From UHGV virus genome UHGV-0138833: 23,871 nt of DNA, one strand, 5' to 3'. This stretch comes from a virus. Position 1 is the first letter of the stretch, and every line of letters begins with the position of its first letter. A model generated the notes under the pieces. It saw nothing but the letters and a program-made list of their open reading frames with translations, made no database searches and was not told the origin of the DNA. The translations under genes and the position numbers were made by a program. Positions 1-23,023 of the stretch are shown here, in pieces.

Positions 1-60
1 TCAGCGGCTGCGCCGCGCTTCGGGGCGATGTGGCCCCGCTGCTCCCTGGTATTTTCTTTC
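1..60. repeat. GC-rich ~55-bp element, copy A (second copy at 834-893)
   Basis: Hand alignment of 1-55 with 834-893 gives roughly 75-80 percent identity, sharing the core GCGG-TGCGC-GCGCTT-GGGG-ATGTGGC ... CC-GGGTATTT. Confidence 0.45.
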
Positions 61-146
61 GCCCCTTCCATGCCCTGTCGGGCATCACATGAATGTAACT
101 ATATGTATTTGATGGTGTTTTTTTTGAAGAATGGAGGGAAAAATAC

Positions 147-175
147 TTGATAATAGGTCAGTTCTGACCTATTAT
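147..175 (+). promoter_or_regulatory. Putative sigma70 promoter overlapped by a 26-bp palindromic operator
   Basis: -35 TTGATA (147-152), 17-bp spacer, -10 TATTAT (170-175). Perfect inverted repeat ATAATAGGTCAG-TT-CTGACCTATTAT (150-175) spans -35 to -10. Lies about 55 bp upstream of ORF 231-515. Confidence 0.4.
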
Positions 176-230
176 AAACACATCGGGAGGGGATGGTCCC
201 CAACCACCAAAGCCGCTCAGCGGCAGGAGC

Positions 231-515
231 ATGAAAATGCATTTCACAACTTTTCTAAAAAAACATTTCGATATAGAAAAAGTCGTTGGTACTTCTGATT
301 CTGGAAATGATACCGAATCTATTTATGTTTATGAAAAAGGAAATGATTGCGAACCGTTGTTTATTCTGCATGAATCCTGGCTAAATGCAGAAATTAAAAA
401 GTGTGGGGTATGGACTATTGGCAATATATATTCCACATTGGAACACGGAAAAGAATATTCTGAACAGGAACTAATAAAAATGATTAAGGAGGGTAAAGTA
501 ATCAGCAAATATTAA
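231..515 (+). CDS. Hypothetical protein (94 aa, soluble, AT-rich codon usage)
   Basis: Intact ORF with AGGAG 3-4 nt upstream of ATG 231 (alternative ATG at 237). No recognisable motif. Followed by a long hairpin. Confidence 0.55.
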   Translation: MKMHFTTFLKKHFDIEKVVGTSDSGNDTESIYVYEKGNDCEPLFILHESWLNAEIKKCGVWTIGNIYSTLEHGKEYSEQELIKMIKEGKVISKY

Positions 516-522
516 TTTGGGG

Positions 523-555
523 TTGGTAACAGGCTGTGGGGCAGCCTGTTACCAA
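523..555. terminator. Long perfect hairpin (12-14-bp stem), possible bidirectional terminator or RNA processing site
   Basis: GGTAACAGGCTG / CAGCCTGTTACC arms with TGGGG loop. No clean U-tract on either strand, so function is uncertain. Confidence 0.35.
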
Positions 556-584
556 ATGACAGATGCATCTTTGGAGATTCTCAA

Positions 585-719
585 ATGTCAGTATGTGAAA
601 TGATAGAGCTTGCAAACCGCATTGTAAATGGGGAACCTGTAAAAACACCCGCGATAGAAGCATGGATTATTAGCGAAATCATTTGGTGGGCGCATAACCG
701 GGATAATGCTTTAGTTTGA
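585..719 (+). CDS. Small hypothetical protein (44 aa), not in the supplied ORF track
   Basis: ATG 585 preceded by GGAG (573-576) at 8-nt spacing; translation MSVCEMIELANRIVNGEPVKTPAIEAWIISEIIWWAHNRDNALV; ends 10 nt before an intrinsic terminator. Confidence 0.3.
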   Translation: MSVCEMIELANRIVNGEPVKTPAIEAWIISEIIWWAHNRDNALV

Positions 720-728
720 GTCATATAT

Positions 729-759
729 GGGGAGAGTGTCATGCTCTCCCTTTCTTATT
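729..759 (+). terminator. Rho-independent terminator
   Basis: Stem GGGAGAG / CTCTCCC (7 bp), loop TGTCATG, then TTTCTTATT. Confidence 0.55.
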
Positions 760-774
760 GTGTAGCGCGTTGTA

Positions 775-828
775 TTACATAGTTAGCTTTACGTTGTAAA
801 GATTTTATTGTCTTTACAGTGTGGTGCG
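775..828. repeat. Composite inverted-repeat element, copy 1 of 3
   Basis: TTACATAG...CTTTAC-GTT-GTAAAG palindrome followed by TTGTCTTTACAGTGTGG. Same architecture recurs at 1379-1430 and 1528-1568. Confidence 0.5.
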
Positions 829-833
829 TTTTC

Positions 834-893
834 CGGCGGTTGCGCTGCGCTTAGGGGTATGTGGCTTCGATGATCCAGGGTATTTCGACGTAA
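834..893. repeat. GC-rich ~55-bp element, copy B
   Basis: See copy A at 1-60. Sits immediately after composite element copy 1 and before the 3' end of the minus-strand gene 903-1346. Confidence 0.45.
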
Positions 894-902
894 TGCGTTG
901 TA

Positions 903-1346
903 TTACGATGTATACTCTTTAATTGCTTGCAATCTCTTTTCACGTTCGTTGCTTTGTTGGGCCTTTTCCAGTTGGCTGTATATGTACTCTTCATCTTTAC
1001 CCGTGAGTATTGAGCCGGAGAGCAGACGATTAATAACTATACGTTTAATTTCTGGGTAATCTTTGGTTTTATCGAGTATGGACAATATGTGGTCACTGCT
1101 AAGAATTATCCCACTCCATGAGTCTAAATAGCTCTTAAAAATCACAATCATAAACACACCGAAAAGCATTATGATGATTGTTACCACATTAATGCTAAAC
1201 GTTGATATAAAGGTATACGCGGCCACACCAATTATTGCTAAACAGAGACATAAATAAATGAAACCGATTTTGTTGCGTTGCTTTTTTTCTGCACGATCAT
1301 GATCATCTATGATTTCCAGTATCTTTTCTGGGATTAGTTGAGTCAT
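903..1346 (-). CDS. Hypothetical membrane protein (147 aa, two predicted TM helices)
   Basis: Intact ORF with hydrophobic stretches IGFIYLCLCLAIIGVAAYTFI and VVTIIIMLFGVFMIVIF. AT-rich. Composite repeat copy 2 lies about 40 bp upstream of its start. Confidence 0.55.
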   Translation of the reverse strand: MTQLIPEKILEIIDDHDRAEKKQRNKIGFIYLCLCLAIIGVAAYTFISTFSINVVTIIIMLFGVFMIVIFKSYLDSWSGIILSSDHILSILDKTKDYPEIKRIVINRLLSGSILTGKDEEYIYSQLEKAQQSNEREKRLQAIKEYTS

Positions 1347-1378
1347 TTTCTTTCCTTATTTGGGACACGGAGTGTTTA

Positions 1379-1430
1379 ATTACATAGCTTTACATTGTAA
1401 ATCTATGTTTGTCTTTACGATGTAAATGAT
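1379..1430. repeat. Composite inverted-repeat element, copy 2 of 3
   Basis: TTACATAG + TTTACA-T-TGTAAA (perfect 6-bp inverted repeat, 1-bp spacer) + TTGTCTTTACGATGTAAAT. Confidence 0.5.
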
Positions 1431-1527
1431 GAGATGTGCAGTTAAAAGTGTCAATCAGATATCATATAGTAAAATACTATATTATTTTCTATGTATCACA
1501 TACACAGCGATAAAACTGGATAAATGA

Positions 1528-1568
1528 CTTACACTGTAAAGATTGAGCTGTCTTTACAGTGTGGTTCA
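1528..1568. repeat. Composite inverted-repeat element, copy 3 of 3 (upstream of the hicA promoter)
   Basis: CTTACACTGTAAAG + CTGTCTTTACAGTGTGG. The 13-mer TCTTTACAGTGTGG is identical to that in copy 1. Confidence 0.5.
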
Positions 1569-1590
1569 TAAGTCATACGAATGAAATAAT

Positions 1591-1619
1591 TTGCCTTTGT
1601 GTGTATGCGTGTGTATAAT
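1591..1619 (+). promoter_or_regulatory. Sigma70 promoter for hicAB
   Basis: -35 TTGCCT (1591-1596), 17-bp spacer, consensus -10 TATAAT (1614-1619); GGAGG RBS at 1633-1637 before ATG 1643. Confidence 0.55.
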
Positions 1620-1642
1620 TATCCTCAGGTTAGGGAGGACAT

Positions 1643-1825
1643 ATGAAATCTGCTGACCTGTTGAAAGAACTGATAGCTGCTGGTTGCGAGTTGAAACGGC
1701 ATAAGGCAAGCAGTCACCAGATATGGTGGTCGCCAATAACAGGAAAAACTTTTCCTGTTCCTCATCCTAAAAAGGACTTGCCGCTAGGTACTGTCAGATC
1801 GATCAAAAAAATGGCGGGGATTTAA
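1643..1825 (+). CDS. hicA: HicA-family toxin (mRNA interferase, 60 aa)
   Basis: Size, position upstream of a HicB-like gene, and pattern MK.S..L...G.......SSH ... G....P.HP...L..GT.RSI.K.AGI resembling E. coli HicA as recalled from memory. Confidence 0.7.
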   Translation: MKSADLLKELIAAGCELKRHKASSHQIWWSPITGKTFPVPHPKKDLPLGTVRSIKKMAGI

Positions 1826-1849
1826 TCCCCGCCGACTTTGGAGGTAGCC

Positions 1850-2287
1850 ATGTTCTTTTCTGTTGGTGTCGAAACACCGAAAGATGATCATACAGCATAC
1901 GGTATCACCGTTCCGGTTTTTGATTGCTTTGATTTTGGATGTGTTTCTGCTGCTGATTCTCAGGCAGAAATACCCGCAATGGCGCGTGAAGCGATATTGG
2001 CAATCGTGGAAGAGATGGTAATAAGCGGTGCTCATTCTGTTGATGATATTCATGATGAAGGGTGTTTGACTTATTCCGCCAACCCAAATTATAACCACTG
2101 TGATAGCTGGTTTGTAATTGATGTTGATTTGTCAGAAATTGAGGGCAAACAACAACGTATTAATATTTCATTGCCTGATGTATTGATTCGTCGTATTGAT
2201 GGATATGTGAGAGAAAGTGGTGGCGTATACAAAGATCGTAGCCATTTTCTGGCTCAGGCGGCACGTCATGAACTTGCATATAAATAA
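1850..2287 (+). CDS. hicB: HicB-family antitoxin (about 145 aa) with C-terminal ribbon-helix-helix-like tail
   Basis: Immediately downstream of hicA; ATG 1850 with GGAGG at 1839-1843 (track start 1838 is a TTG). C-terminus RINISLPDVLIRRIDGYVRESGG...SHFLAQAARHEL looks RHH-like. Confidence 0.65.
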   Translation: MFFSVGVETPKDDHTAYGITVPVFDCFDFGCVSAADSQAEIPAMAREAILAIVEEMVISGAHSVDDIHDEGCLTYSANPNYNHCDSWFVIDVDLSEIEGKQQRINISLPDVLIRRIDGYVRESGGVYKDRSHFLAQAARHELAYK

Positions 2288-2291
2288 AACT

Positions 2292-2320
2292 ATCCCCGCG
2301 TTGTGCGGGGATTTTTTTTG
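2292..2320 (+). terminator. Rho-independent terminator after hicB
   Basis: Stem ATCCCCGC / GCGGGGAT, loop GTTGT, followed by TTTTTTTT. Confidence 0.7.
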
Positions 2321-2417
2321 ATAGCTAACCGCTCGCCGCAGTCCAGCGACCGAGCATAGCGAGCGAGCGACGAGGAAGCGGAAGATCCACCGTTGCCAGG
2401 AGAAAAGCAGGTACGCA

Positions 2418-2738
2418 CTATGCGTTCTGCCCTAGTGATGCTTTCACAAACCACGCAGCCTGAACTATTACGCCATGAATCCAGCGTAAATCGGCATCAC
2501 GATTTTCTTTTTTCATTTTTTCGCCACTTAATGCCTTGCTTACGTGACTTTTTACCAGATTTTCGTGTAATTCTTTTGCTTCTTCAATTGTGAAACCACC
2601 AGGCAAATTTGGCGCTTCTGCTTCCAGTGATGCCAGAGCAATTTCATAAGCCCGACGCTCAATATTGTCTCGGACGTCCAGGCTGCCTATACGCTCTTTG
2701 ATTTCTTTAATCAGTTCTTTGTCGGTGAACGTTGTCAT
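2418..2738 (-). CDS. Hypothetical phage protein (106 aa)
   Basis: Intact ORF with AAGGA RBS upstream of ATG 2738. Shares the motif ALASLEAEA with the protein at 3014-3457, suggesting paralogy. Confidence 0.55.
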   Translation of the reverse strand: MTTFTDKELIKEIKERIGSLDVRDNIERRAYEIALASLEAEAPNLPGGFTIEEAKELHENLVKSHVSKALSGEKMKKENRDADLRWIHGVIVQAAWFVKASLGQNA

Positions 2739-7165: not shown

Positions 7166-7822
7166 TCAGAAAATATCCCACCTGGCATCAACCACAACAC
7201 CTACTATTTCGCAATCATTGTCCATTTCTATGATTGGATATTGTGGATTAAGGGGCTTTAGAAACGCCTTTCCCATGTCAGAAATATATTTTTTGAATGT
7301 TGCTTCATTGGTCGATTTTTTTCTGGCGATGACGTAACACCCTGAAAAAACTTCTTTATCTGGGTTGACAAGGATCGACATTCCTTCAGGAAATGTTATT
7401 CCTACGGGCGAAGTCATTGAGTCTCCGTGCACTTCCAGCCAGAACCCCCTCTCACCAGCGTATTTTACAGAATGCCTCCAATTATCCTGATCATACATGT
7501 TGTAGTCATCACCAGAAGTTGCGAATAATCCTGCCTGAACCCAGTTAATTACAGGGTAAGAGTGTGCTGTGTCTCTCTGTGGGCAGCTCTTAACATTATT
7601 TTCCCAATGCTTATCTTTTTCATCTCCGTTCTGAAGCCACTGCGGTGAACACCGCAGTGCAGCTGCAACTTTAAAAAGGGTGTCACCGTTGAAACTTTTT
7701 GTAAGGCCTTGCTCGGCTTTACTGATTGCAACTCTGGTGATCCCAGCTTTTTTAGCCAACGCATCTTGTGTTAACCCAGCTTTTTGCCGTGCGTTGATGA
7801 GACGTTCACCTAAAGACTTCAT
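7166..7822 (-). CDS. CI-type prophage repressor: N-terminal HTH plus C-terminal S24 (LexA-like) autopeptidase
   Basis: Start taken at MKSLGERLINARQ (ATG 7822) with GAGAGGAGAAGAAAA RBS. HTH QKAGLTQDALAKKAGITRVAISKAEQG; Ala-Gly candidate cleavage site (VQAGLF); GDSM serine motif and downstream Lys (ARKK). Confidence 0.8.
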   Translation of the reverse strand: MKSLGERLINARQKAGLTQDALAKKAGITRVAISKAEQGLTKSFNGDTLFKVAAALRCSPQWLQNGDEKDKHWENNVKSCPQRDTAHSYPVINWVQAGLFATSGDDYNMYDQDNWRHSVKYAGERGFWLEVHGDSMTSPVGITFPEGMSILVNPDKEVFSGCYVIARKKSTNEATFKKYISDMGKAFLKPLNPQYPIIEMDNDCEIVGVVVDARWDIF

Positions 7823-8161: not shown

Positions 8162-8865
8162 ACACCGCAATTTTTAACGGCAAAGCATCCATGACCAGCG
8201 TTGAGATCGCAGAGCTGGTGGGTAAACGTCATGACAATGTGAAACGCACTATTGAAACATTAGCCAAAGGTGGCGTTGTCCGGTCTCCTCAAATTGAGGT
8301 TTCCGAAAGAATCAATAACTTAGGTTTTAAAGTTCAATATGAGCATTACCTGTTTGAAGGAGAACAAGGTAAGCGCGACAGCATCATTGTCGTCGCACAG
8401 CTCTGTCCTGAATTCACTGCTCGCCTGGTAGATCGCTGGCGCGAACTGGAAGAACAGATCCGTAAGCCAATGAGCGAAATCGAAATGGTTGCCGCGATGG
8501 CTCTTGAAGCCGTTCGCCAACAGAAACGGATCACTCAGGTGGAAGAAAAAGTCAGCCACGTTGCTGAAACAGTCGAGCAAATTAAAAAGGGCACTATTCG
8601 TGAGGGCTATGCCGGATATCGCCAACTGAAAGCAAAAACCGGTTTGTCAGATGATAAATGCCGCAATCTGGTGAACGCCTATCAGATTCCTACAGACACC
8701 CATGAGTTCATGACGCCGGACGGATTGTTGTCACGTCGCGCAATTGTTGCTGTGGAACCGTTTATGGCTGCTTTTTATCGGGTTATGGAGGAAGCAGAAC
8801 CGCGAGGGACTCGCTGGTATCACCCGAAAATGGGGTTATTTCAGGTTATTGGTTGGCAGCGGTGA
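8158..8865 (+). CDS. Rha-family phage regulatory protein / antirepressor-like (235 aa)
   Basis: Strong AGGAGA RBS. N-terminal SVEIAELVGKRHDNVKRTIETL pattern typical of Rha-type regulators (recollection of family signature). Confidence 0.55.
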   Translation: MNTAIFNGKASMTSVEIAELVGKRHDNVKRTIETLAKGGVVRSPQIEVSERINNLGFKVQYEHYLFEGEQGKRDSIIVVAQLCPEFTARLVDRWRELEEQIRKPMSEIEMVAAMALEAVRQQKRITQVEEKVSHVAETVEQIKKGTIREGYAGYRQLKAKTGLSDDKCRNLVNAYQIPTDTHEFMTPDGLLSRRAIVAVEPFMAAFYRVMEEAEPRGTRWYHPKMGLFQVIGWQR

Positions 8866-8889: not shown

Positions 8890-9087
8890 CACTCAACATC
8901 AATAACGGGGAGCTGTTTCGCATAAAACGGCTCCGAAACATCCAAGAACAGTTCTAAAGATATCAGCAGCTATATGATCATTTCAAGACCAAATATTGAT
9001 TCTGCAATTTCGGGACGTTACACTGTCTCTGCACCTTATAAAGCGGGTGCCGGGGGTCGCAGCCCGGAATTGTCAACGGCGATATAT

Positions 9088-9108
9088 GACGCGCCAGCGT
9101 CTTTTTTA
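9088..9108 (+). terminator. Short intrinsic terminator candidate in the leader of the second Rha gene (tR1-like position)
   Basis: Stem GACGC / GCGTC, loop GCCA, followed by TTTTTTA. Confidence 0.35.
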
Positions 9109-9273
9109 TCGTCCGCGCTCACGCACGCCAGAATTATGGTGGGCTGGGCAGGGGAGCCGAAAGGCTCGCCGGTCTCCGTTGACGCCGGTACTGCGAACCC
9201 TGTTCAGTCTGCCACCAGTGAGTTTCGCAGCTCCGGTGGTGGAAGTTTTCCACAGTCAACGGAGGCTGCCATC

Positions 9274-9825
9274 ATGGCTACGATCCCAACCCTCACTCAA
9301 CCTGAAATTGCCATCGTTGATGGTCAGGCTGTTACTTCATCCCTGGCTGTTGCCAACTTCTTCTCCAAGCGTCATGACGATGTACTGAAAAAGATCCGCA
9401 CGCTTGAATGCTCCGCATCATTCACTGCCCGCAATTTTTCGGTGAGTGATTACACCGATTGCACAGGCCGCAAACTACCTTGCTATCAAATCACCCGTGA
9501 TGGCTTCGCGTTCCTTGCTATGGGCTTTACTGGCAAACGTGCAGCCCGGTTCAAAGAGGCATACATCAACGCCTTTAACCTGATGGAGAAGAGTTTATCA
9601 GGTGCCGATGCGTCTGATATGTCAGCTGTCGCACGAAACGCCAGAGGCGTATACCTGCATTTGCGTGAAATCCATCAAATCTGGACAAGCCAGCTTTATC
9701 CAATGCTTAAGGCCGTTGAATCTCCGCTGGCTAGCAAACTGTACGACCGTGTTGGTGATGCTGTTTTTGGCGCTGCACTTGTTGGTTCCAGGCTGAATGG
9801 TTCTGACAAGGAGGTTCGCCCATGA
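9274..9825 (+). CDS. Rha-family phage regulatory protein (about 183 aa)
   Basis: Start taken at MATIPTL (ATG 9274) with GGAGG RBS at 9261-9265. Segment FSKRHDDVLKKIRTL...ARNFSVSDY...YQITRDGFAFLAMGFTGKRAARFKEAYINAFNLME matches the Rha pattern. Confidence 0.65.
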   Translation: MATIPTLTQPEIAIVDGQAVTSSLAVANFFSKRHDDVLKKIRTLECSASFTARNFSVSDYTDCTGRKLPCYQITRDGFAFLAMGFTGKRAARFKEAYINAFNLMEKSLSGADASDMSAVARNARGVYLHLREIHQIWTSQLYPMLKAVESPLASKLYDRVGDAVFGAALVGSRLNGSDKEVRP

Positions 9826-15131: not shown

Positions 15132-15491
15132 ATGCTCATAGATTTGGTTTTACCTTACCCGCCGACGGTGAACACTTACTGGCGACGCCGTGGCAGCACA
15201 TATTTTGTATCAAAAGCCGGGGAGCGTTATCGCCGGGCAGTGGCGCTTATTGTTCGCCAGCAGCGGCTGAAATTAAGCCTGTCCGGAAGGCTGGCGATAA
15301 AGGTGATTGCAGAGCCACCGGATAAGCGCCGTCGTGACCTGGACAATATTCTGAAAGCACCACTGGATGCACTGACACATGCGGGGTTGCTTATCGACGA
15401 CGAGCAGTTTGATGAAATCAATATTGTGCGCGGACTGCCTGTTCCTGGTGGTCGGTTGGGGATAAAAATCACAGAGCTGGAGTGCGCATGA
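15132..15491 (+). CDS. rusA: RusA-family Holliday junction resolvase (119 aa)
   Basis: Close resemblance to E. coli RusA as recalled: LPYPPTVNTYWRRRG..., DKRRRDLDNILKAPLDALTHAGLLIDDEQ, GGRLGIKITELE. Confidence 0.8.
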   Translation: MLIDLVLPYPPTVNTYWRRRGSTYFVSKAGERYRRAVALIVRQQRLKLSLSGRLAIKVIAEPPDKRRRDLDNILKAPLDALTHAGLLIDDEQFDEINIVRGLPVPGGRLGIKITELECA

Positions 15492-16177
15492 ATAACCAGT
15501 ATTTACAGTTTGTTCGTGAGCAACTCATTATCGCCACCGCCGATTTGAGTGGGGCAACAAAAGGTCAGCTTGAAGCCTGGCAGGAGAATGCCATGTTTGA
15601 TACAGGGCGTTACAGACGTAAAAAAATCCGGTACCGCGATAAGGTCACTGGAAAAATGGTAACGCTGGATAATCCACCGATCCCGGGAAAGCAATCGCTG
15701 GCGAAAGGTTCATCAATTGCCCTAGTCAGTCCGGTTGAGTTTTCGACATCATCATGGCGACGCGCCGTTCTGTCTCTTGAAGAGCATCAGAAGGCGTGGG
15801 TACTGTGGGTATACAGTGAAAATCCGAGTTGGGATTATCAGGTGGTCATTGCGAAATGGGCGTGGGATAAGTTTCAGGTGCATTTTGGCACCAGAAAAAT
15901 TACAGGGAAAACGCTTGAGCGTCTGAAGAAATTAATCTGGCTGGCGGCGCAGGATGTCAGGGGGAGGATTACTGGGTGTGACGTCTACCAGCGACAGGAA
16001 CTTGCCAGACTGTGTGGAGTTAAGTCAGACAACTGGAGCCACAATTATGCGCACTACTGGCGTGATATGTGCGACATTTTTAAGAACCTCGACAACGAAT
16101 CTTTGATTTATACCATGAAAACAAGATCGCAACAAAAAGCGACCTTTTCGCGGCGGGTTATTGCAAAAGTCAATTAA
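15488..16177 (+). CDS. Putative late-gene antiterminator (Q-like, about 229 aa)
   Basis: Assignment is positional: directly after rusA with an ATGA overlap and followed within about 70 nt by a terminator-like hairpin (lambda Q-PR'-tR' geometry). No sequence motif was confirmed. Confidence 0.4.
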   Translation: MNNQYLQFVREQLIIATADLSGATKGQLEAWQENAMFDTGRYRRKKIRYRDKVTGKMVTLDNPPIPGKQSLAKGSSIALVSPVEFSTSSWRRAVLSLEEHQKAWVLWVYSENPSWDYQVVIAKWAWDKFQVHFGTRKITGKTLERLKKLIWLAAQDVRGRITGCDVYQRQELARLCGVKSDNWSHNYAHYWRDMCDIFKNLDNESLIYTMKTRSQQKATFSRRVIAKVN

Positions 16178-16241: not shown

Positions 16242-16272
16242 AGCCTGCTGCTGAGCGGGCTATCTTTTGTCG
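16242..16272 (+). terminator. tR'-like intrinsic terminator candidate downstream of the Q-like gene
   Basis: Stem AGCCTGC / GCGGGCT (7 bp including one G-U pair), loop TGCTGA, followed by ATCTTTTGT. Confidence 0.4.
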
Positions 16273-16449
16273 TAAGTTGAGCGAAAGACCATCGATTTTA
16301 CCTTGCTAAAACTATTCTGCTATTGCCGAGTTACCCTTTAGGTAATACACTCATCTTATAAAAGAAAGTGGTTGTTAGCCACATAGGTTAGGATGTGCGC
16401 ATACTTTGTTTGTGTGCTTTTTGTGTTTTATCTGTTAACGGAGGGGAGC

Positions 16450-16677
16450 ATGCCGAAATATCTAACACTTGCCGCTCGCGCGATCCTCTCACCTGAGAAG
16501 ATCATCAAAAAAATTGCAGATATAGCTTCCATGTGTGATGGAAAAGAAGCTAAGCATGAAAGTGACAAGTTTTTCATTGATAGTAATGGTTCGATGGTTT
16601 TGAATCGCAACAACGCTGATGTGCAAAAGGCTTTCGCAGCCAATATTAAGGGATTGAGTACTAAGAAGAAGGGTTAG
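16450..16677 (+). CDS. Hypothetical small soluble protein (75 aa), first gene of an AT-rich two-gene cassette
   Basis: Strong GGAGGGGAG RBS before ATG 16450 (track start 16393 lacks an RBS). AT-rich relative to flanking phage genes (visual estimate). Confidence 0.55.
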   Translation: MPKYLTLAARAILSPEKIIKKIADIASMCDGKEAKHESDKFFIDSNGSMVLNRNNADVQKAFAANIKGLSTKKKG

Positions 16678-16683
16678 TCTTCT

Positions 16684-17481
16684 ATGTGGGCTGCGCTGAT
16701 TGTTATTGTTTTAGTTTGTGGTTATCACTATACCAACTGCCATTTGCCGTCACGATACCGTCAAAGCAAAGCGATCGGTTGGAATGCATACTTTGATGTT
16801 GCACTGAAAGGTGGTGAGTTTCTCATAAGTGGTATTCTTATCGCTGCCTTATTGGTTGTTGTTCTGTACGCTGGAATGTCACTTTGGAACATTCCAGCGT
16901 ACTTGTTTGGTTGGTACGCTCCCTTTACTTTCGCCCATGACTTTCTCAAAATGCAAGTGTTTGGGTTGAGCATGTTCCCTGCTATGTCGATAGCTTTCAC
17001 TATTATTGTAAGTATCGGGAAGGCATCAGAGGCAACCAAAAACCATAAAGACCCACAAAAGCGCAAGGCTATTTTTGAAGAAATTGCGGCTCATAGTGCC
17101 GTGGAAAATATCCTTCTTGAATCAGTTGAGCGTGGATTGTTATTGTTGGTTACACTGAAGTCTCGCAAGGTCTATGTGGGGATGATTGATGAGGCACGTT
17201 TCAATCAGTTAGATACTAACACATTGGTGCTAATCCCTTTTATGTCCGGGTACAGAGATAAAGATACTCTGACTTTTTGTGTTGAGCATAATTATGTGGA
17301 CTACTACCTTAGTCAGGGTATCACATTAACTTCTGAGCCATTGTCAGTTTATCAGTTTAGGCATGTGTTGCCCTTCGATCAGATCGAATCTTTTTCGCTG
17401 TTTAATGTTGAAACATTCGAGACTTTCAAGGCAGGTATTGAAGGGAAGAAGGCCACTGAAGTACAGAATCAAACAAGTTAA
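16684..17481 (+). CDS. Hypothetical membrane protein (265 aa): about three N-terminal TM helices plus a ~150-aa soluble C-terminal domain
   Basis: Hydrophobic segments AALIVIVLVCGY, FLISGILIAALLVVVLYAGMSLW and VFGLSMFPAMSIAFTIIVSIG. No recognisable catalytic motif. Followed by a strong terminator. Confidence 0.6.
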   Translation: MWAALIVIVLVCGYHYTNCHLPSRYRQSKAIGWNAYFDVALKGGEFLISGILIAALLVVVLYAGMSLWNIPAYLFGWYAPFTFAHDFLKMQVFGLSMFPAMSIAFTIIVSIGKASEATKNHKDPQKRKAIFEEIAAHSAVENILLESVERGLLLLVTLKSRKVYVGMIDEARFNQLDTNTLVLIPFMSGYRDKDTLTFCVEHNYVDYYLSQGITLTSEPLSVYQFRHVLPFDQIESFSLFNVETFETFKAGIEGKKATEVQNQTS

Positions 17482-17500
17482 GGTTGTTACCTCATTAATT

Positions 17501-17527
17501 AAACCCGCCATTGAGCGGGTTTTTTGA
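17501..17527 (+). terminator. Strong rho-independent terminator closing the two-gene cassette
   Basis: AAACCCGC-CATTGA-GCGGGTTT followed by TTTTTG. Confidence 0.75.
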
Positions 17528-17643
17528 TGCCCGAAGTGCGGTACATTAAACGCGCTGGTAGTTATTAATATCGGTCTTTCAGCTTGCTGGCTTTTTCGAC
17601 AAGAGTTATTGGTATGTCACGTTAACCAGAAAAGGGAAAAGGC

Positions 17644-17841
17644 ATGCTAAAACAGCAGGATATGACCGAAACTGCCAGAGTGGTGTTTAATGAATTAAGC
17701 GTCACCGAACCGGCGACCGTCGGGGAAATTGCGCATAATACTTACCTTTCACGCGAACGTTGCCAGTTAATACTGACCCAGCTTGTTATGGCGGGTCTGG
17801 CAGATTATCAGTTCGGTTGTTACAGACGCCTTCCTCAGTGA
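17644..17841 (+). CDS. Small putative HTH DNA-binding protein (65 aa) upstream of the methyltransferase
   Basis: Segment ATVGEIAHNTYLSRERCQLILTQLVMAGLA resembles a winged-helix/HTH. Confidence 0.45.
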   Translation: MLKQQDMTETARVVFNELSVTEPATVGEIAHNTYLSRERCQLILTQLVMAGLADYQFGCYRRLPQ

Positions 17842-17939
17842 AGGCTTTTTTATTTGTGGTAATGGGCGGCTGGTGGGTGTTAGCGGCACCTGCCAGCCAT
17901 CTGCTCATGCGTTGGGTTCACAAGCAAACCTCAGGCCCA

Positions 17940-17958
17940 CTGCTTTGCGCAAAAGCAG
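17940..17958. promoter_or_regulatory. 19-bp palindrome just upstream of the methyltransferase start
   Basis: CTGCTTT-GCGCA-AAAGCAG, about 30 bp before ATG 17991. Confidence 0.35.
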
Positions 17959-17990
17959 AATGAGCCTATCAGAGACAGGCTTAATGATCC

Positions 17991-19040
17991 ATGCTTAATA
18001 CTGTAAAAATATCCAGTTGTGAGTTAATCAACGCCGACTGCCTGGAATTTATCCGGTCGTTACCCGAAAATTCTGTTGACCTGATAGTTACGGACCCGCC
18101 GTACTTTAAAGTGAAGCCTGAGGGCTGGGATAACCAGTGGAAGGGCGACGATGATTACCTGAAGTGGCTGGACCAGTGTCTGGCGCAGTTCTGGCGGGTG
18201 CTGAAACCTGCCGGAAGTCTTTACCTGTTCTGTGGTCATCGCCTGGCATCTGATATCGAAATCATGATGCGTGAACGCTTCAGTGTGCTGAACCATATTA
18301 TCTGGGCGAAGCCGTCCGGACGCTGGAACGGATGCAACAAGGAAAGCCTGCGGGCGTATTTCCCCGCCACAGAGCGCATTCTGTTCGCGGAACATTATCA
18401 GGGGCCGTATCGTCCGAAAGATGCCGGGTATGAGGCGAAGGGCAGGGCACTGAAACAGCATGTGATGGCCCCGCTGATTGCTTACTTTCGTGATGCGCGC
18501 GCTGCCCTGGGGATAACGGCAAAACAGATTGCAGATGCCACAGGAAAGAAAAACATGGTGCCGCACTGGTTCAGTGCCAGTCAGTGGCAGCTACCGAACG
18601 AAAGCGATTATCTGAAATTACAGTCGCTGTTTGCCCGGGTGGCAGAAGAGAAACATCAGCGCGGGGAACTGGAAAAGCCACACCACCAGCTGGTCAGCAC
18701 ATACAGTGAGCTGAACCGGCAGTATATGGAACTGCTGAGTGAATATAAAAATTTGCGGCGGTATTTCGGTGTGACGGTGCAGGTGCCGTACACCGATGTG
18801 TGGACGTATAAACCGGTGCAGTACTATCCCGGGAAACATCCGTGCGAAAAACCGGCAGAAATGCTGCAGCAGATAATCAGCGCAAGTAGTCGTCCTGGTG
18901 ATCTGGTTGCGGATTTTTTCATGGGGTCGGGTTCAACGGTAAAAGCGGCGATGGCACTGGGGCGTCGTGCGATTGGTGTTGAGCTGGAGACCGGACGTTT
19001 TGAGCAGACAGTCAGGGAAGTTCAGGATTTAATCGTTTGA
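17991..19040 (+). CDS. DNA amino-methyltransferase (probable N6-adenine, beta-class motif order; 349 aa)
   Basis: Catalytic motif IV DPPY (VTDPPYF) near the N-terminus and AdoMet motif I FFMGSGST near the C-terminus. No adjacent restriction endonuclease, so apparently orphan. Confidence 0.8.
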   Translation: MLNTVKISSCELINADCLEFIRSLPENSVDLIVTDPPYFKVKPEGWDNQWKGDDDYLKWLDQCLAQFWRVLKPAGSLYLFCGHRLASDIEIMMRERFSVLNHIIWAKPSGRWNGCNKESLRAYFPATERILFAEHYQGPYRPKDAGYEAKGRALKQHVMAPLIAYFRDARAALGITAKQIADATGKKNMVPHWFSASQWQLPNESDYLKLQSLFARVAEEKHQRGELEKPHHQLVSTYSELNRQYMELLSEYKNLRRYFGVTVQVPYTDVWTYKPVQYYPGKHPCEKPAEMLQQIISASSRPGDLVADFFMGSGSTVKAAMALGRRAIGVELETGRFEQTVREVQDLIV

Positions 19041-19089
19041 AACGGATGAGATTGCAGTATTAATTCCGTAACGTTATTATTCTGCGCGC

Positions 19090-19165
19090 GGCCCTTTAGC
19101 TCAGTGGTGAGAGCGAGCGACTCATAATCGCCAGGTCGCTGGTTCAAATCCAGCAAGGGCCACCA
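19090..19165 (+). tRNA. tRNA with anticodon CAU (Ile2-like, ileX/ileZ type; Met not excluded)
   Basis: Manual cloverleaf: acceptor GGCCCTT/AAGGGCC, D-arm GCTC..GAGC, anticodon loop CTCATAA, T-arm GCTGG-TTCAAAT-CCAGC, encoded CCA. Resembles E. coli ileX as recalled. Confidence 0.8.
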
Positions 19166-19172
19166 TCACATA

Positions 19173-19249
19173 CCGCCATTAGCTCATCAGGAAAGAGCGC
19201 CAGCCTTCGAAGCTGGCTGCGCGGGGTTCAAGTCCCCGATGGCGGTCCA
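19173..19249 (+). tRNA. tRNA-Arg (anticodon UCG)
   Basis: Manual cloverleaf: acceptor CCGCCAT/ATGGCGG, anticodon stem CCAGC/GCTGG with loop CTTCGAA, T-arm CGGGG-TTCAAGT-CCCCG, encoded CCA. Confidence 0.75.
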
Positions 19250-19262
19250 TTATCTGCATCAT

Positions 19263-19339
19263 GCGTTGTTAGCTCAGCCGGACAGAGCAATTGCCTTCTA
19301 AGCAATCGGTCACTGGTTCGAATCCAGTACAGCGCGCCA
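19263..19339 (+). tRNA. tRNA-Arg (anticodon UCU)
   Basis: Manual cloverleaf: acceptor GCGTTGT/ACAGCGC (one G-U pair), anticodon stem ATTGC/GCAAT with loop CTTCTAA, T-arm ACTGG-TTCGAAT-CCAGT, G73, encoded CCA. Confidence 0.8.
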
Positions 19340-19446
19340 TATTCATTCTTCCAGATTCCTTTCGGCAGAGCCTTATACTGAAATATACCTGGCTCAGGAT
19401 ATTGTTGAAAATATTATATGTTTGTCAAAAATAAAAGTTCTGTTAA

Positions 19447-19803
19447 GTGTTGATTGAGTGTTTGTTATACGGTCTAATGGTTTTTTCAGCATTAAATATT
19501 TATCATTCATATGGTGTGGGTAGAGTGAATATTGATGAGGCGTCGGGGTGTTTCATCCTTAGGCAGCGTATTGATATAGTCAATGCAGAACGAGCAAAGG
19601 CCTTCAGCCGTTTGACAGTTTTGTTCTGTACTCCTGATCGTCTTTCGGGAAGAGACGTTATTATTCTGAATAGTGATGCTATACAGAGGGTTTGCGATGA
19701 GTTCATGGTGGCTAATTCAGAATTATTTGCTCTTGTTCAGGAGTACAACAGAATAGCCAGGACCTGTGGTATGGATGAACTTCGGATTACTCATCTGGGG
19801 TAG
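19447..19803 (+). CDS. Hypothetical protein (about 109-118 aa) in the AT-rich island after the tRNAs
   Basis: ORF with uncertain start (TTG 19447 or ATG 19474). AT-rich; no recognisable motif. Confidence 0.4.
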   Translation: MLIECLLYGLMVFSALNIYHSYGVGRVNIDEASGCFILRQRIDIVNAERAKAFSRLTVLFCTPDRLSGRDVIILNSDAIQRVCDEFMVANSELFALVQEYNRIARTCGMDELRITHLG

Positions 19804-20195
19804 ATACATATCTGGATTATCACCGGTTACGGTAAAAAGTGATTGCTTACTGTTTTTGTGAATGGCATTGCAGCAGCCGGATAATGTCAGTGCTGGCTGA
19901 CGGTGTGCTGGTGGCGGGTGTGGTGGTTGCTGCTTTCCCGTTGCTGAAAAAGAAAACGCCAGACTGTTAGCCGGGTATCAGTTAGCGGGAGAAATTTTTA
20001 AATACTTCACAATTCAGGCGGTTGACTGTTGTCTGGTTTGCGGGGAGTTTGTTAAAAGAAACTGGCATGGTGAATCCCCCTGTGCGGAGGGGCAATCAGC
20101 GAGTAGGTATATGGGATAATCGCGGATTCAGGTGCTGGTACTGAATTCACCGGGAGGCACCCGGCACCATGCAATGGCACATAGCGCCACTCTCC

Positions 20196-20231
20196 AGCCC
20201 CTCTCCGGAGGGGCTGTTTATATTGATTTTG
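20196..20231 (+). terminator. Rho-independent terminator ending a GC-rich structured segment
   Basis: AGCCCCTC-TCCG-GAGGGGCT (8-bp stem) followed by GTTTATATTGATTTTG. A sibling hairpin CCCCT-GTGCGG-AGGGG lies at 20077-20092. Confidence 0.65.
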
Positions 20232-20250: not shown

Positions 20251-20586
20251 TTATGGACTTTGTTGTTTTAGCCCATAAGGACATATTTGCAGAGTGCAAC
20301 GGTTATTAAAGCATTCATTCAATACGTTATCTGTATTTGTAGGGCATTCCTGGCTGTTTTTGATTAAATTCCAGAATGTTTTATTGAATGGTACTACGTT
20401 GTAAATGGTTACAGGCAGCACTTTGTTATTGAGCATGATGCCTGTGTGAGTCAGTGTAAATATACTTTCAGGAGGTAAGAAAGCATCCGATTGATACCAG
20501 ATTATTAATTTTATTTTACTCCATATGACTGAAAAAGATATTCCGCATGATGGCTGGATAACTGTATCAATCACAATCCACTTCAT
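20251..20586 (-). CDS. Hypothetical protein (111 aa), very AT-rich, convergent with the preceding plus-strand unit
   Basis: Good AAGGAAA RBS about 5 nt upstream of ATG 20586. Cys-containing; no recognisable domain. Confidence 0.5.
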
Positions 20587-21035: not shown

Positions 21036-21278
21036 TACTACGTCATCGTACTGGCCCGGCATTCCAGGCCATAAAAGACGGTCTGGCAGTGGGACTAAAT
21101 GCACTGACGCTGACGGATATTACCAAAAATGCAACGTATGGCGTTGAGATGGAAAGTCTGGTGCTGGAGATAAATGCACCGGCATCATCATAAAAAGTGA
21201 GCCAGTCAAATGGAAGGTATCGTTAAACTCACCGGTAGTGTCAGTGGGTCGTCTGAGACGCCTGCATGAGTTATCAGA

Positions 21279-21310
21279 GCCATCAGTACTTAACTGGTGG
21301 CTTTTTTATT
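21279..21310 (+). terminator. Rho-independent terminator immediately upstream of the holin gene
   Basis: Stem GCCATCAG / CTGGTGGC (8 bp, one G-U pair), loop TACTTAA, followed by TTTTTTATT. Confidence 0.6.
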
Positions 21311-21342: not shown

Positions 21343-21558
21343 ATGTACCAGATGGAAAAAATCACAACAGGTGTGTCATACACCACGTCAGCGGTGGGAA
21401 CGGGCTACTGGTTCCTGCAGTTGCTGGACAGGGTTTCCCCGTCTCAGTGGGCGGCAATAGGCGTGCTGGGGAGTCTGCTGTTTGGGCTGCTGACATATCT
21501 GACTAACCTGTATTTCAAAATCAAAGAGGACCGGCGTAAGGCGGCGCGGGGAGAGTAA
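21343..21558 (+). CDS. Pinholin (phage 21 S-type holin, 71/68 aa) with dual-start motif
   Basis: [10 protein letters not shown]... has two in-frame starts (Met1, Met4). Core ...[51 protein letters not shown] closely matches the S21 pinholin as recalled. GGAG RBS present. Confidence 0.8.
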
Positions 21559-21562
21559 AGTG

Positions 21563-22453
21563 ATGAATAAAAAATATGAACTGGTTGTTAAGGGGATAAA
21601 TAATTACGGGGATAAGGTTACTGTTACTGTGAAGCCGGAAGGTGACGGGCAAGCGTCGCTGTTGTTGCCAGATGTGGCGATTAGTCTTGACCGTACTGAA
21701 GGTGCCACGCTGGAGTTTTACGAAGCTGAGGCGAAAAAGCAGGCGAAGCAGTTTTTCATGGATGTTGCTGCCGGGTTATGTGAAGGGGATGGTCCGTTGC
21801 CGGAAAAGCGCCCCGTAATTTTAGAGGCGCAGGATGTGTTGATAACCTACAAAGGAAAGCTACCGGGAAGAATTACTTGTTCTCTGAAGATGCCGCCGTC
21901 AACACTGCGGTCAGAAAAAGATGATGTTGAATCACGTATTGAAAAACTGGAGAGCTACGTCGTTGAGCTGAATAAGAAATGGTCGATATTGGTGCCTTCT
22001 GGCGATGAAAAGCAGTTTGCTGCGTTTGACGATTATTGTCGGAAAGTGATGAGCAGAAATCTCGCAGAGTGTTTCAGTATTCATAATGATAATTTCAGTG
22101 ACCCGGAATGGGAGTGTAACCGGCCATCCTTTGTTGTATCCGGTGATGCTGGGAAAATAACCATCTCAGAAAATGGGAAAGTAACACCTCCATCGCACCA
22201 GCACAGTGAGGAGCTCATTGAATTTGCCATTGATTACCTGAAGAACAATAAAAAGCAGGGGCTGATGAAGCGCGTTGGCCGTTGCATGGGATATCTGCAG
22301 GTAGCTGCTGAGATTGAAGCGCTGGCCAGTGGTGCTGATAAGGATGCAATTGTGCGGGAGGCTCTTCTTCGTGATTTTAATACTCCACCCTTTAAAAAAG
22401 TGCCGGCTTACTGGCTTCATCCGGGGCTGACTTATCTTAAAGTGCGTATTTAG
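21563..22453 (+). CDS. Hypothetical soluble protein (296 aa) inserted between pinholin and endolysin
   Basis: GGAGAG RBS 7 nt upstream of ATG 21563. No TM segment or recognisable catalytic motif. Lower GC than flanking lysis genes (visual estimate). Confidence 0.6.
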   Translation: MNKKYELVVKGINNYGDKVTVTVKPEGDGQASLLLPDVAISLDRTEGATLEFYEAEAKKQAKQFFMDVAAGLCEGDGPLPEKRPVILEAQDVLITYKGKLPGRITCSLKMPPSTLRSEKDDVESRIEKLESYVVELNKKWSILVPSGDEKQFAAFDDYCRKVMSRNLAECFSIHNDNFSDPEWECNRPSFVVSGDAGKITISENGKVTPPSHQHSEELIEFAIDYLKNNKKQGLMKRVGRCMGYLQVAAEIEALASGADKDAIVREALLRDFNTPPFKKVPAYWLHPGLTYLKVRI

Positions 22454-22489: not shown

Positions 22490-23023
22490 ATGAACACCAA
22501 AATCAAATACGGCCTGTCGGCTGCCGTTCTGGCGCTGATTGCCGCTGGTGCGCCTGCGCCTGACATTCTCGACCAGTTTCTGGATGAAAAGGAAGGCAAG
22601 CACACCACAGCATACCGTGATGGTGCAGGTATCTGGACCATCTGCCGTGGTGCCATCATGGTGGATGGCAAACCTGTCGTTCCGGGCATGAAGTTGTCGA
22701 AGGAAAAATGCGACCAGGTTAACGCCATTGAGCGTGATAAAGCGCTGGCGTGGGTGGAGAAAAACATCAGAGTGCCGCTGACCGAACCCCAGAAAGCGGG
22801 GATCGCGTCATTCTGTCCGTACAACATTGGTCCCGGTAAGTGTTTCCCGTCGACGTTTTACAGACGAATTAATGCTGGTGATCGAAAAGGTGCCTGCGAA
22901 GCGATTCGCTGGTGGATTAAGGACGGTGGCAGAGACTGCCGTATTCGTTCAAACAACTGTTACGGTCAGGTATCCCGTCGTGACCAGGAGAGCGCGCTGG
23001 CGTGCTGGGGTATCGACAGATAA
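22490..23023 (+). CDS. SAR endolysin (phage 21 R-type lysozyme, GH24-like; 177 aa)
   Basis: N-terminal signal-anchor-release segment YGLSAAVLALIAAGAPAP; E-D-T catalytic arrangement in EGKHTTAYRDGAGIWTICRG; C-terminal ACWG. Pairs with the pinholin. Confidence 0.8.
   Translation: MNTKIKYGLSAAVLALIAAGAPAPDILDQFLDEKEGKHTTAYRDGAGIWTICRGAIMVDGKPVVPGMKLSKEKCDQVNAIERDKALAWVEKNIRVPLTEPQKAGIASFCPYNIGPGKCFPSTFYRRINAGDRKGACEAIRWWIKDGGRDCRIRSNNCYGQVSRRDQESALACWGIDR

Follow-up and report, generated by a model that had tools for sequence, protein, structure and literature searches.

The ileZ–argN–argO tRNA gene cluster in a lambdoid Escherichia coli prophage without Shiga toxin genes

Genomic context of the tRNA genes

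The window (the whole stretch of DNA that was analysed, 23,871 nucleotides) comprises the left two-thirds of an E. coli prophage of the lambdoid type. Its left part contains early-left genes on the minus strand, followed by a LexA-family repressor gene, from which cro-like and Rha genes diverge, and by the replication genes, one of which encodes a DnaB-type helicase. The replication genes are followed by DUF968 and RusA genes and then by Q. As shown in Table 1, a terminator-like hairpin with a T run was found just 3′ of Q, and two AT-rich ORFs of unknown function are located between this putative tR′ and a DNA methyltransferase gene. Three tRNA genes, a segment with two small ORFs and the sRNA STnc100 come next. 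An IraM-family gene on the minus strand and then a DUF1737 gene were found to the right of STnc100, and the right end of the window encodes the holin, a DUF1327 protein, the lysozyme and the start of Rz.

Table 1. Features of the late region around the tRNA gene cluster (positions in the window).
Feature	Position	Strand	Basis
Antiterminator Q	15488-16177	+	Pfam Phage_antiter_Q 1.5e-83
Terminator-like hairpin and T run, at the position expected for tR′ just 3′ of Q	16242-16261	+	Sequence
Further terminator-like hairpins	16397-16417, 17828-17845, 20195-20216 (in STnc100), 21276-21304	+	
DNA methyltransferase	17991-19040	+	Pfam N6_N4_Mtase 1.9e-44; PADLOC MTase_II 2.6e-167
Promoter-like element: TTGCAG (19052-19057), 17-nt spacer, TATTAT (19075-19080)	19052-19080	+	Read from sequence
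ileZ, tRNA-Ile2 type, anticodon CAU	19090-19165	+	ARAGORN; Rfam tRNA model 72.5 bits
argN, tRNA-Arg, anticodon UCG	19173-19249	+	ARAGORN; Rfam tRNA model 58.0 bits
argO, tRNA-Arg, anticodon UCU	19263-19339	+	ARAGORN; Rfam tRNA model 68.0 bits
Cassette in place of stx2AB	19353-20006	+	Synteny breakpoints against Stx2a_1447
Small ORF, about 92-108 aa, start uncertain	19477-19803	+	phrog_2873 (function unknown) 1.7e-70
DUF3927/TciB-like 43-aa ORF	19839-19970	+	DUF3927 1.3e-26; phrog_1470 1.5e-11
STnc100 sRNA, conserved right border of the cassette	20036-20225	+	Rfam RF02076, 132.4 bits
Holin	21343-21558		
Lysozyme	22490-23023		

Exactly three tRNA genes were detected by ARAGORN in the whole window, all on the plus strand. 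They lie within about 250 bp in the order CAU–UCG–UCU, separated by spacers of 7 and 13 nt, and the 3′ CCA is encoded in all three genes. The scores obtained with the Rfam tRNA covariance model are to be read against its gathering score of 29. Minimum-energy folding of the single tRNAs gave a cloverleaf for argN only, which was perfect (-35 kcal/mol, z = -2.85), and the calls were judged by the covariance-model scores rather than by such folds. The methyltransferase ORF ends 50 bp upstream of ileZ. A preliminary description of this DNA had placed three tightly packed tRNA genes with these anticodons after a methyltransferase gene, and the folds, the anticodons and the location were all borne out.

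Within the late region, the cluster has Q on its left and the lysis genes on its right, and it is collinear with an Stx2a phage and with the prophage of E. coli AREA_499. AREA_499 was the closest complete genome, in which 85% of the window was matched at 99.3% identity; the left end of the window is its own and is not common to AREA_499. The possibility that the tRNA genes form a phage attachment site was considered and rejected, as they sit deep in the late region of the prophage, about 18 kb from its left end in AREA_499.

Identity of the three tRNAs

The CAU tRNA gene was compared with the host genes that have the same anticodon. It was identical to K-12 ileX at 68 of 76 positions (8 differences) and to the elongator gene metT at only 52 of 77 aligned columns. 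The alignment showed G1-C72, C4-G69 and C5-G68 in the acceptor stem and C11-G24 and U12-A23 in the D stem, without the A11-U24 and G12-C23 pairs of the fMet type. The tRNA is not initiator-like because it has the G1-C72 pair. C4-G69 and C5-G68 are the pairs required by E. coli TilS (PMC1635315). The anticodon loop is that of host ileX, and the stem differs, with A27×C43 in ileZ and G27-U43 in ileX. Identical copies of the gene are called tRNA-Ile by PGAP. By these features ileZ is of the tRNA-Ile2 type, which had been considered earlier, and is neither an initiator nor an elongator tRNA-Met. We infer that it would read AUA once C34 is converted to lysidine and that it would be charged with isoleucine.

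Recognition by ArgRS depends mainly on C35, on either U36 or G36, and on A20 of the D loop. These elements are present in both argN and argO, which have G18-G19-A20 and the anticodons UCG and UCU in the alignment. tRNA-Arg genes of E. coli have a purine at the discriminator position 73, and argO has G73, like argU, whereas argN has U73. The first pair of argN is C1-G72; this pair and U73 are unusual, but both are shared with argN of the Stx2a phage. K-12 has the Arg anticodons ACG, CCG, UCU and CCU, and UCG is absent; CGA is read in K-12 by inosine-modified ACG tRNAs. argN is predicted to read CGA and probably CGG as well, and argO AGA, plus AGG by wobble. argO and K-12 argU were identical at 57 of 77 positions, with identical anticodon loops and different anticodon stems (ATTGC/GCAAT in argO, ACGAC/GTCGT in argU).

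The 17-mer of the argN anticodon arm, CCAGCCTTCGAAGCTGG, was not specific, with Xanthomonadales, Burkholderia, Pseudomonas, Acidobacteriota and others among the matches listed. The matches outside E. coli are presumably these organisms' own tRNA-Arg(UCG) genes, and the scan indicates only that the anticodon arm of argN is of a common type.

Comparison with the Stx2a phage

The cluster was compared with the copies annotated in Stx2a_1447 (AP012536), where ileZ, argN and argO are followed by stx2A and stx2B. The genes were identical at 76 of 76, 73 of 77 and 76 of 77 positions, respectively, and the methyltransferase shared 92.1% identity with the methylase that precedes ileZ there. The two clusters are alike in anticodons, order, strand, spacing, the methylase upstream and STnc100 downstream. 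The cluster is also present upstream of stx2AB in 933W and Sakai Sp5. The likeness to the cluster upstream of stx in Stx2 phages, which had been proposed in the preliminary description, was confirmed, and it is nearly certain that the three genes are the known ileZ–argN–argO cluster of lambdoid E. coli phages, carried in this case by a prophage of the non-Stx kind. Every defining feature of this cluster, of tRNA-Ile2 and of tRNA-Arg that could be tested was found, and U73 of argN alone was atypical. The cluster itself is already known: it is named in Stx phage records and annotated by PGAP in thousands of E. coli genomes, and nothing relevant was found in the literature under the names ileZ, argN and argO. 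As a discovery it is of little weight, and the use of the present analysis lies in a corrected emphasis.

The absence of stx had also been described correctly. No Stx-like coding capacity was detected in the window by tblastn with Stx2A, Stx2B and Stx2eA (best E 0.6), and the feature that defines an Stx-converting phage, stxA and stxB in the late region, is missing. Over the block of methylase and tRNA genes (17499-19352) the window was 91% identical to Stx2a_1447. Homology stopped at 19352, 13 nt past argO, and resumed at 20007. The segment between argO and STnc100 carries stx2AB and is 1365 bp long in Stx2a_1447, whereas here it is 654 bp long and carries the small ORF and the DUF3927 gene. 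STnc100 comes directly after stx2B in Stx2a_1447 (8349-8564, 153.8 bits). Since homology stops after argO and resumes at STnc100, the tRNA genes and STnc100 bracket an exchangeable cassette, and stx2AB is one of several cassettes able to occupy this interval. Further downstream, the window has the IraM-family gene where the Stx2 phage has a large esterase-like ORF.

The small ORF of the cassette was examined as a candidate toxin or defence gene; it had no Pfam, NCBIfam or PADLOC match, and phrog_2873 was the only family assigned. Its homologues were E. coli and Shigella hypothetical proteins only. The AlphaFold model (pLDDT 75) has two long helices and short strands and gave no PDB match below E = 0.1, and the product is unrelated to the neighbouring IraM-like protein.

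The 91% identity up to the end of the tRNA block, with homology again from STnc100, raises the possibility that the prophage descends from an Stx phage, in which stx2AB was lost by cassette replacement and the tRNA genes remained as a relic of the toxin locus. The location of the closest relative also agrees with this history: the AREA_499 prophage adjoins yecN and a DUF72 gene, a neighbourhood that corresponds to yecE, where Stx phages are known to integrate. However, later insertion of stx is equally possible, and the direction of exchange cannot be inferred from the comparison. In the lambdoid phage mEp460, which is not an Stx phage, the stretch from the tRNA genes to STnc100 is the same and is located directly after Q (ileZ, argO, the phrog_2873 ORF and DUF3927, with a degenerate argN), and the copies of the cluster without stx2 far outnumber those next to the toxin, as described below. 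Descent from an Stx phage is considered unlikely, although not negligible; it would be compatible with a role of the tRNAs in codon supplementation.

Distribution of the cluster in E. coli

The cluster, taken as present when at least 80% of the 250-bp query was covered, was found in 2578 of 5426 complete E. coli genomes (about 48%). It was located at 7593 places in 3061 genomes, with up to 13 places per genome. A query consisting of the cluster plus stx2AB showed the two to be contiguous in 595 genomes, a count that covered stx2AB only. The arrangement of the window from the methylase to DUF1737 was found in 491 genomes, including the O104:H4 outbreak lineage at 97.9% identity, in which Stx2a is encoded on a different prophage.

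The preliminary description had singled out the cluster for being without a toxin locus. This emphasis did not hold: the absence of stx is unremarkable because the cluster is present in nearly half of the complete genomes and contiguous with stx2AB in far fewer, and the cluster without the toxin is the usual state in E. coli. The three tRNA genes are a general accessory of lambdoid prophages and no marker of a toxin locus, and genome scans that take them as a sign of Stx phages would mislead.

Conservation and decay of the tRNA genes

Compared with Stx2a_1447, identity was 100% for ileZ, 98.7% for argO and 94.8% for argN, while it was 61-78% in the spacers and 90-92% in the neighbouring coding sequence. 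All four differences in argN are located in the D and T loops, and the sole change in argO, U4-A69 to U4-G69, keeps the pair. Since the tRNAs are far better kept than the spacers, with loop-only differences in argN and a preserved pair in argO, selection on tRNA function rather than on mere homology is suggested, and purifying selection is visible in the comparison with this phage. Among eight phage and prophage contexts ileZ was identical in seven, and argO differed by at most 2 nt.

argN was much less stable. It was not detected by ARAGORN in mEp460, in vB_EcoS-640R1, in an Stx2c phage, in an Stx2e prophage and in a blood-isolate prophage, the last of which carries the same cargo as the window. 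A tRNA-like element of 80-81 nt stood in its place in three of these, mEp460 and the prophages of Stx2e and the blood isolate. The two elements that were folded (Stx2e and blood isolate) keep the acceptor stem and have a 7-bp hairpin with a 3-nt loop for the anticodon arm. Judged from these sequences, argN is dispensable in nature. In the window the cluster is fully intact, argN included.

Such decay bears on the idea that the tRNAs are of little or no present benefit and persist in a methylase–tRNA–sRNA block that serves recombinational cassette exchange between lambdoid phages. In its favour, argN, and sometimes argO, are decayed in many lineages; no copy of the cluster was better than 80-90% identical in 1430 of 3073 records, and the sampled ones had two annotated tRNAs, not three. 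The tRNA genes and STnc100 also bracket the sole segment here that differs from the Stx2a phage. However, ileZ and argO are kept at the levels given above across contexts in which the spacers diverge, and the changes in intact argN and in argO spare the paired structure. We regard mere persistence with the block as very unlikely.

Promoter-like sequence and expected expression

The promoter-like element upstream of ileZ (Table 1) is followed by a GC-rich stretch of 9 nt between TATTAT and the mature 5′ end of the tRNA. The pattern TTGC(A/G/T)(G/A)-17-TAT(T/C)AT was kept in all eight contexts, some of which have unrelated sequence further upstream. In mEp460 the element directly follows the T run of a terminator. 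In a prophage of strain 3385 it was kept though the upstream genes are unrelated and oppositely oriented. The layout of K-12 ileX is similar, with TATAAT 10 nt before the tRNA. A consensus promoter scan gave no site upstream of the cluster, because the -35 hexamer matches the consensus at only 3 of 6 positions. For O157:H7, a promoter located between q and stx2 has been named the 'pS tRNA promoter' (PMC2858043). From the conservation of the element and this mention in the literature, the cluster appears to have its own promoter with a short leader.

The cluster lies downstream of Q and of the presumed pR′/tR′. After induction, Q-modified polymerase would read past the terminators listed in Table 1, so that the tRNAs would be part of the late transcript, and the genes would also be amplified together with the replicating genome. 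The tRNAs are probably made in the lysogen as well, from their own putative promoter.

Codon usage of the prophage genes

Codon usage was compared between 40 genes of the window (6418 codons) and 42 annotated genes from 100-150 kb of K-12 (14790 codons). As shown in Table 2, all five codons that the three tRNAs are expected to read were more frequent in the window.

Table 2. Frequencies (per 1000 codons) of the five codons in the window and in a single 50-kb core region of K-12.
Codon	Window	K-12 core	Ratio	p	Rank among 61 codons
ATA	12.2	2.4	5.0	5e-17	3
AGA	8.6	1.2	6.9	2e-15	1
AGG	4.5	0.7	6.5	2e-8	2
CGG	9.0	3.5	2.6	1e-6	5
CGA	4.8	2.6	1.8	0.013	10

The three codons most over-used by the prophage are those assigned to ileZ and argO; by our own calculation, three top codons drawn at random would all belong to these five with a probability of 10/35990. 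CTA, a rare codon outside the reach of the cluster, showed no enrichment (4.8 per 1000 in the window, 4.1 in K-12). A single 50-kb core region served as the host baseline, and the genome-wide frequencies of these codons in K-12 are about twice as high, which would roughly halve the ratios in Table 2; the true enrichment is probably 2.5-4 fold.

The enrichment was not uniform along the prophage. In the cargo between Q and the holin, AUA reached 18.5 per 1000 (7.6 times the host value, p = 7e-10), and the IraM-like gene alone has 6 ATA in 111 codons. AGA in this cargo was 3.9 per 1000 (p = 0.05), no clear excess, and CGA was 1.0 per 1000, below the host. The flanking AT-rich cargo had been named as the natural beneficiary of the tRNAs; this held for AUA but not for AGA or CGA. 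AGA and AGG were highest in early, immunity and lysis genes, and CGA in the early-left genes. For CGG, the maxima were in the early-right genes and, at 17.7 per 1000, among the late structural genes of the closest relative. Genes rich in these rare codons include cI (3 AUA, 3 AGA and 3 AGG in 218 codons), Q and the lysozyme gene. In the closest relative, none of the five codons occurs among the 342 of the major capsid gene, and 1-4 occur in each of the decoration and tail-tube genes; the major structural genes avoid these codons, and the most highly expressed late genes would have no need of the tRNAs, which counts against supplementation. The stx2AB genes have 36.8 ATA and 14.7 AGA per 1000 codons. 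The codon match thus fits supplementation across the prophage, with the flanking cargo enriched in AUA only. It is a correlation, as AT-rich horizontally acquired DNA in E. coli is generally rich in AUA and AGA with or without tRNA genes.

Proposed role of the tRNA cluster

We consider it likely that the cluster supplements the decoding of AUA, AGA/AGG and CGA/CGG in prophage genes. The three tRNAs would be decoders that are scarce or absent in the host. TilS would convert ileZ to a lysidine-bearing reader of AUA, argO (UCU) would read AGA and AGG, and argN, whose UCG anticodon is missing from K-12, would read CGA and probably CGG. Slow decoding would be relieved mainly in regulatory, accessory and low-abundance genes, not in the major structural proteins. 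Codon compensation is the classical explanation for phage tRNA clusters such as those of large virulent phages (PMC10264068).

Exactly in the slot of the cluster, behind the same promoter-like element, the prophage of strain 3385 has an array of Ile(CAU)–Lys(UUU)–Thr(UGU)–Gly(UCC). Three members of this array read codons that are high on the enrichment list of the window (ACA rank 4, GGA rank 8 and AAG rank 11), and, as ACA and GGA rank 4th and 8th, codon supplementation would also cover the array of strain 3385.

The same array can also be read in another way, since Lys(UUU) and Thr(UGU) are anticodons known from phage counter-defence. The tRNA-Thr(UGU) of the lambdoid phage 21 protects against P2-OLD, and phage tRNA-Lys(UUU) copies rescue cells from AriB of PARIS (PMC12445682). 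By analogy, the cluster may be kept mainly for nuclease-resistant replacements of host tRNAs that are cut by a toxin such as colicin D, which acts on tRNA-Arg, or by defence systems such as prophage-borne Toprim/HEPN anticodon nucleases. The anticodon stems of argO and argU, and those of ileZ and ileX, do differ. PMC10264068 lists colicin D as one of the tRNases against which phage tRNAs might act. However, the loop-mutation signature proposed in that source is absent here, the loops of ileZ and argO being those of ileX and argU. In the literature examined, no nuclease was reported to target tRNA-Ile2 and none to target tRNA-Arg(UCU) specifically, and argN has no host counterpart to replace. 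Protection from nucleases is also not needed to explain the codon match.

Colicin D is the only tRNase in the literature examined whose known target is tRNA-Arg, and no nuclease is known to us that acts on tRNA-Ile2. Phage tRNAs that evade nucleases, such as tRNA-Thr of phage 21, the tRNA-Lys countering PARIS and a tRNA-Tyr countering retron-Eco7, are phage-borne too, and one of them is carried by a lambdoid phage; however, their anticodons are other than those of the cluster, whose loops are unchanged from the host. Counter-defence as the main reason for keeping the tRNAs is accordingly improbable in our view. The broader proposal, that the slot between Q and the holin in lambdoid prophages is a counter-defence locus in which ileZ, argN and argO would chiefly be nuclease-resistant spares and the codon match secondary, is somewhat more doubtful still. 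If the counter-defence reading were true, toxins or defence systems that cleave tRNA-Arg or tRNA-Ile2 would be the targets, some of them perhaps undiscovered.

Codon supplementation is our preferred explanation. The phage genes were also set beside their host counterparts. ileZ and argO have the same anticodons and anticodon loops as ileX and argU, ileZ shares the TilS determinants with ileX, and the -10 element lies 9-10 nt upstream of the mature 5′ end in both. Unlike the host genes, the phage genes are clustered within the phage late operon. In large virulent phages, T4-like and others, Arg(UCU) tRNAs occur along with a CAU tRNA whose identity to ileZ is about 80%. Their arrays are larger, whereas the cluster described here is a minimal set of three genes in a temperate phage and is probably expressed in the prophage state too.

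tRNA genes and tRNA-like elements in related prophages

In place of argN, many related prophages carry a tRNA-like element of 80–81 nt whose acceptor stem is intact (Table). The central segment of this element was common to mEp460, an ST131-type blood isolate and an Stx2e prophage. Two copies were folded, those of the blood isolate and of the Stx2e prophage; in both, the anticodon arm was replaced by a 7-bp hairpin closed by a loop of 3 nt. PGAP labels the element of the Stx2e prophage "tRNA-OTHER". The tRNA-like element is perhaps a pseudogene, or else an RNA serving a different function.

The prophage of E. coli strain 3385 (L134) carries a different tRNA array, which occupies the same Q-to-holin slot as ileZ–argN–argO and is preceded by the same promoter-like element. 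Its Lys and Thr anticodons are those of the known PARIS and P2-OLD targets. ACA and GGA codons, matching its Thr(UGU) and Gly(UCC), were over-used in the genes of the window as well.

Table. Positions of tRNA-like elements, RNAs and genes in the window and in related prophages
Feature	Sequence	Position	Strand	Remark
tRNA-like element	L132	2584-2664		in place of argN; acceptor stem intact
tRNA-like element	L131	2584-2663		as L132
tRNA-like element	L010	3687-3786		as L132
Ile(CAU)-Lys(UUU)-Thr(UGU)-Gly(UCC) array	L134	2501-2810		Q-to-holin slot
hicA	window	1643-1825	+	Pfam HicA_toxin, 1.1e-15
hicB	window	1838-2287	+	Pfam HicB_lk_antitox, 1.4e-26
isrK RNA match	window	9031-9107	+	Rfam, 58.7 bits
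C4 antisense RNA match	window	9132-9219	+	Rfam, 78.8 bits
Two AT-rich ORFs (75 aa; 265 aa, phrog_3630)	window	16450-17481	+	between tR' hairpin and methylase
Small ORF, phrog_2873	window	19477-19803	+	stx-equivalent slot; conserved
DUF3927/TciB-like ORF, 43 aa	window	19839-19970	+	after phrog_2873 ORF
STnc100 sRNA	window	20036-20225	+	Rfam RF02076, 132 bits; immediately right of cassette
IraM/IraL-family RssB anti-adaptor gene	window	20251-20586	-	NCBIfam NF007393, 162 bits
DUF1327 protein gene, 297 aa	window	21560-22453	+	phrog_1085, full length; between holin and lysozyme

The stx-equivalent slot and its border

The phrog_2873 ORF was confined to E. coli and Shigella, and PGAP leaves it without annotation in the closest genome. 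Its true start is uncertain because the conserved core begins near 19525. The product was predicted to fold as a helical hairpin, which had no match in PDB. An STnc100-family sRNA also lies directly 3' of stx2B in the Stx2a phage (L001, 8349-8564), and phage vB_EcoS-640R1 carries two copies of STnc100. In related genomes, PGAP instead places a minus-strand pseudogene over this sRNA, which is probably a spurious annotation.

Cargo genes and Rfam isrK and C4 RNA matches

The IraM/IraL-family gene is prophage cargo on the opposite strand and is very AT-rich (GC 0.35; 6 AUA codons of 111), its product being 62% identical to K-12 IraM. This gene could connect the prophage with the stability of RpoS in the lysogen. 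The two ORFs upstream of the methylase are late-region cargo and had no match in Pfam, NCBIfam or PADLOC. Between holin and lysozyme, related prophages encode a YdfR-type protein of 115–185 aa, whereas the window encodes the 297-aa DUF1327 protein; this difference is a length polymorphism.

The hicA–hicB toxin–antitoxin pair lies within the very AT-rich left end of the window (1-2733), a part that the window does not have in common with AREA_499, the closest relative, and whose ORFs contain 38 AUA codons per 1000. The isrK and C4 antisense RNA matches fall within the 5' part of an Ash/Rha-family ORF annotated at 8974-9825, whose start may be over-extended. Their layout resembles P1 immI (c4–ant) or the isrK–antirepressor arrangement of Gifsy-1.
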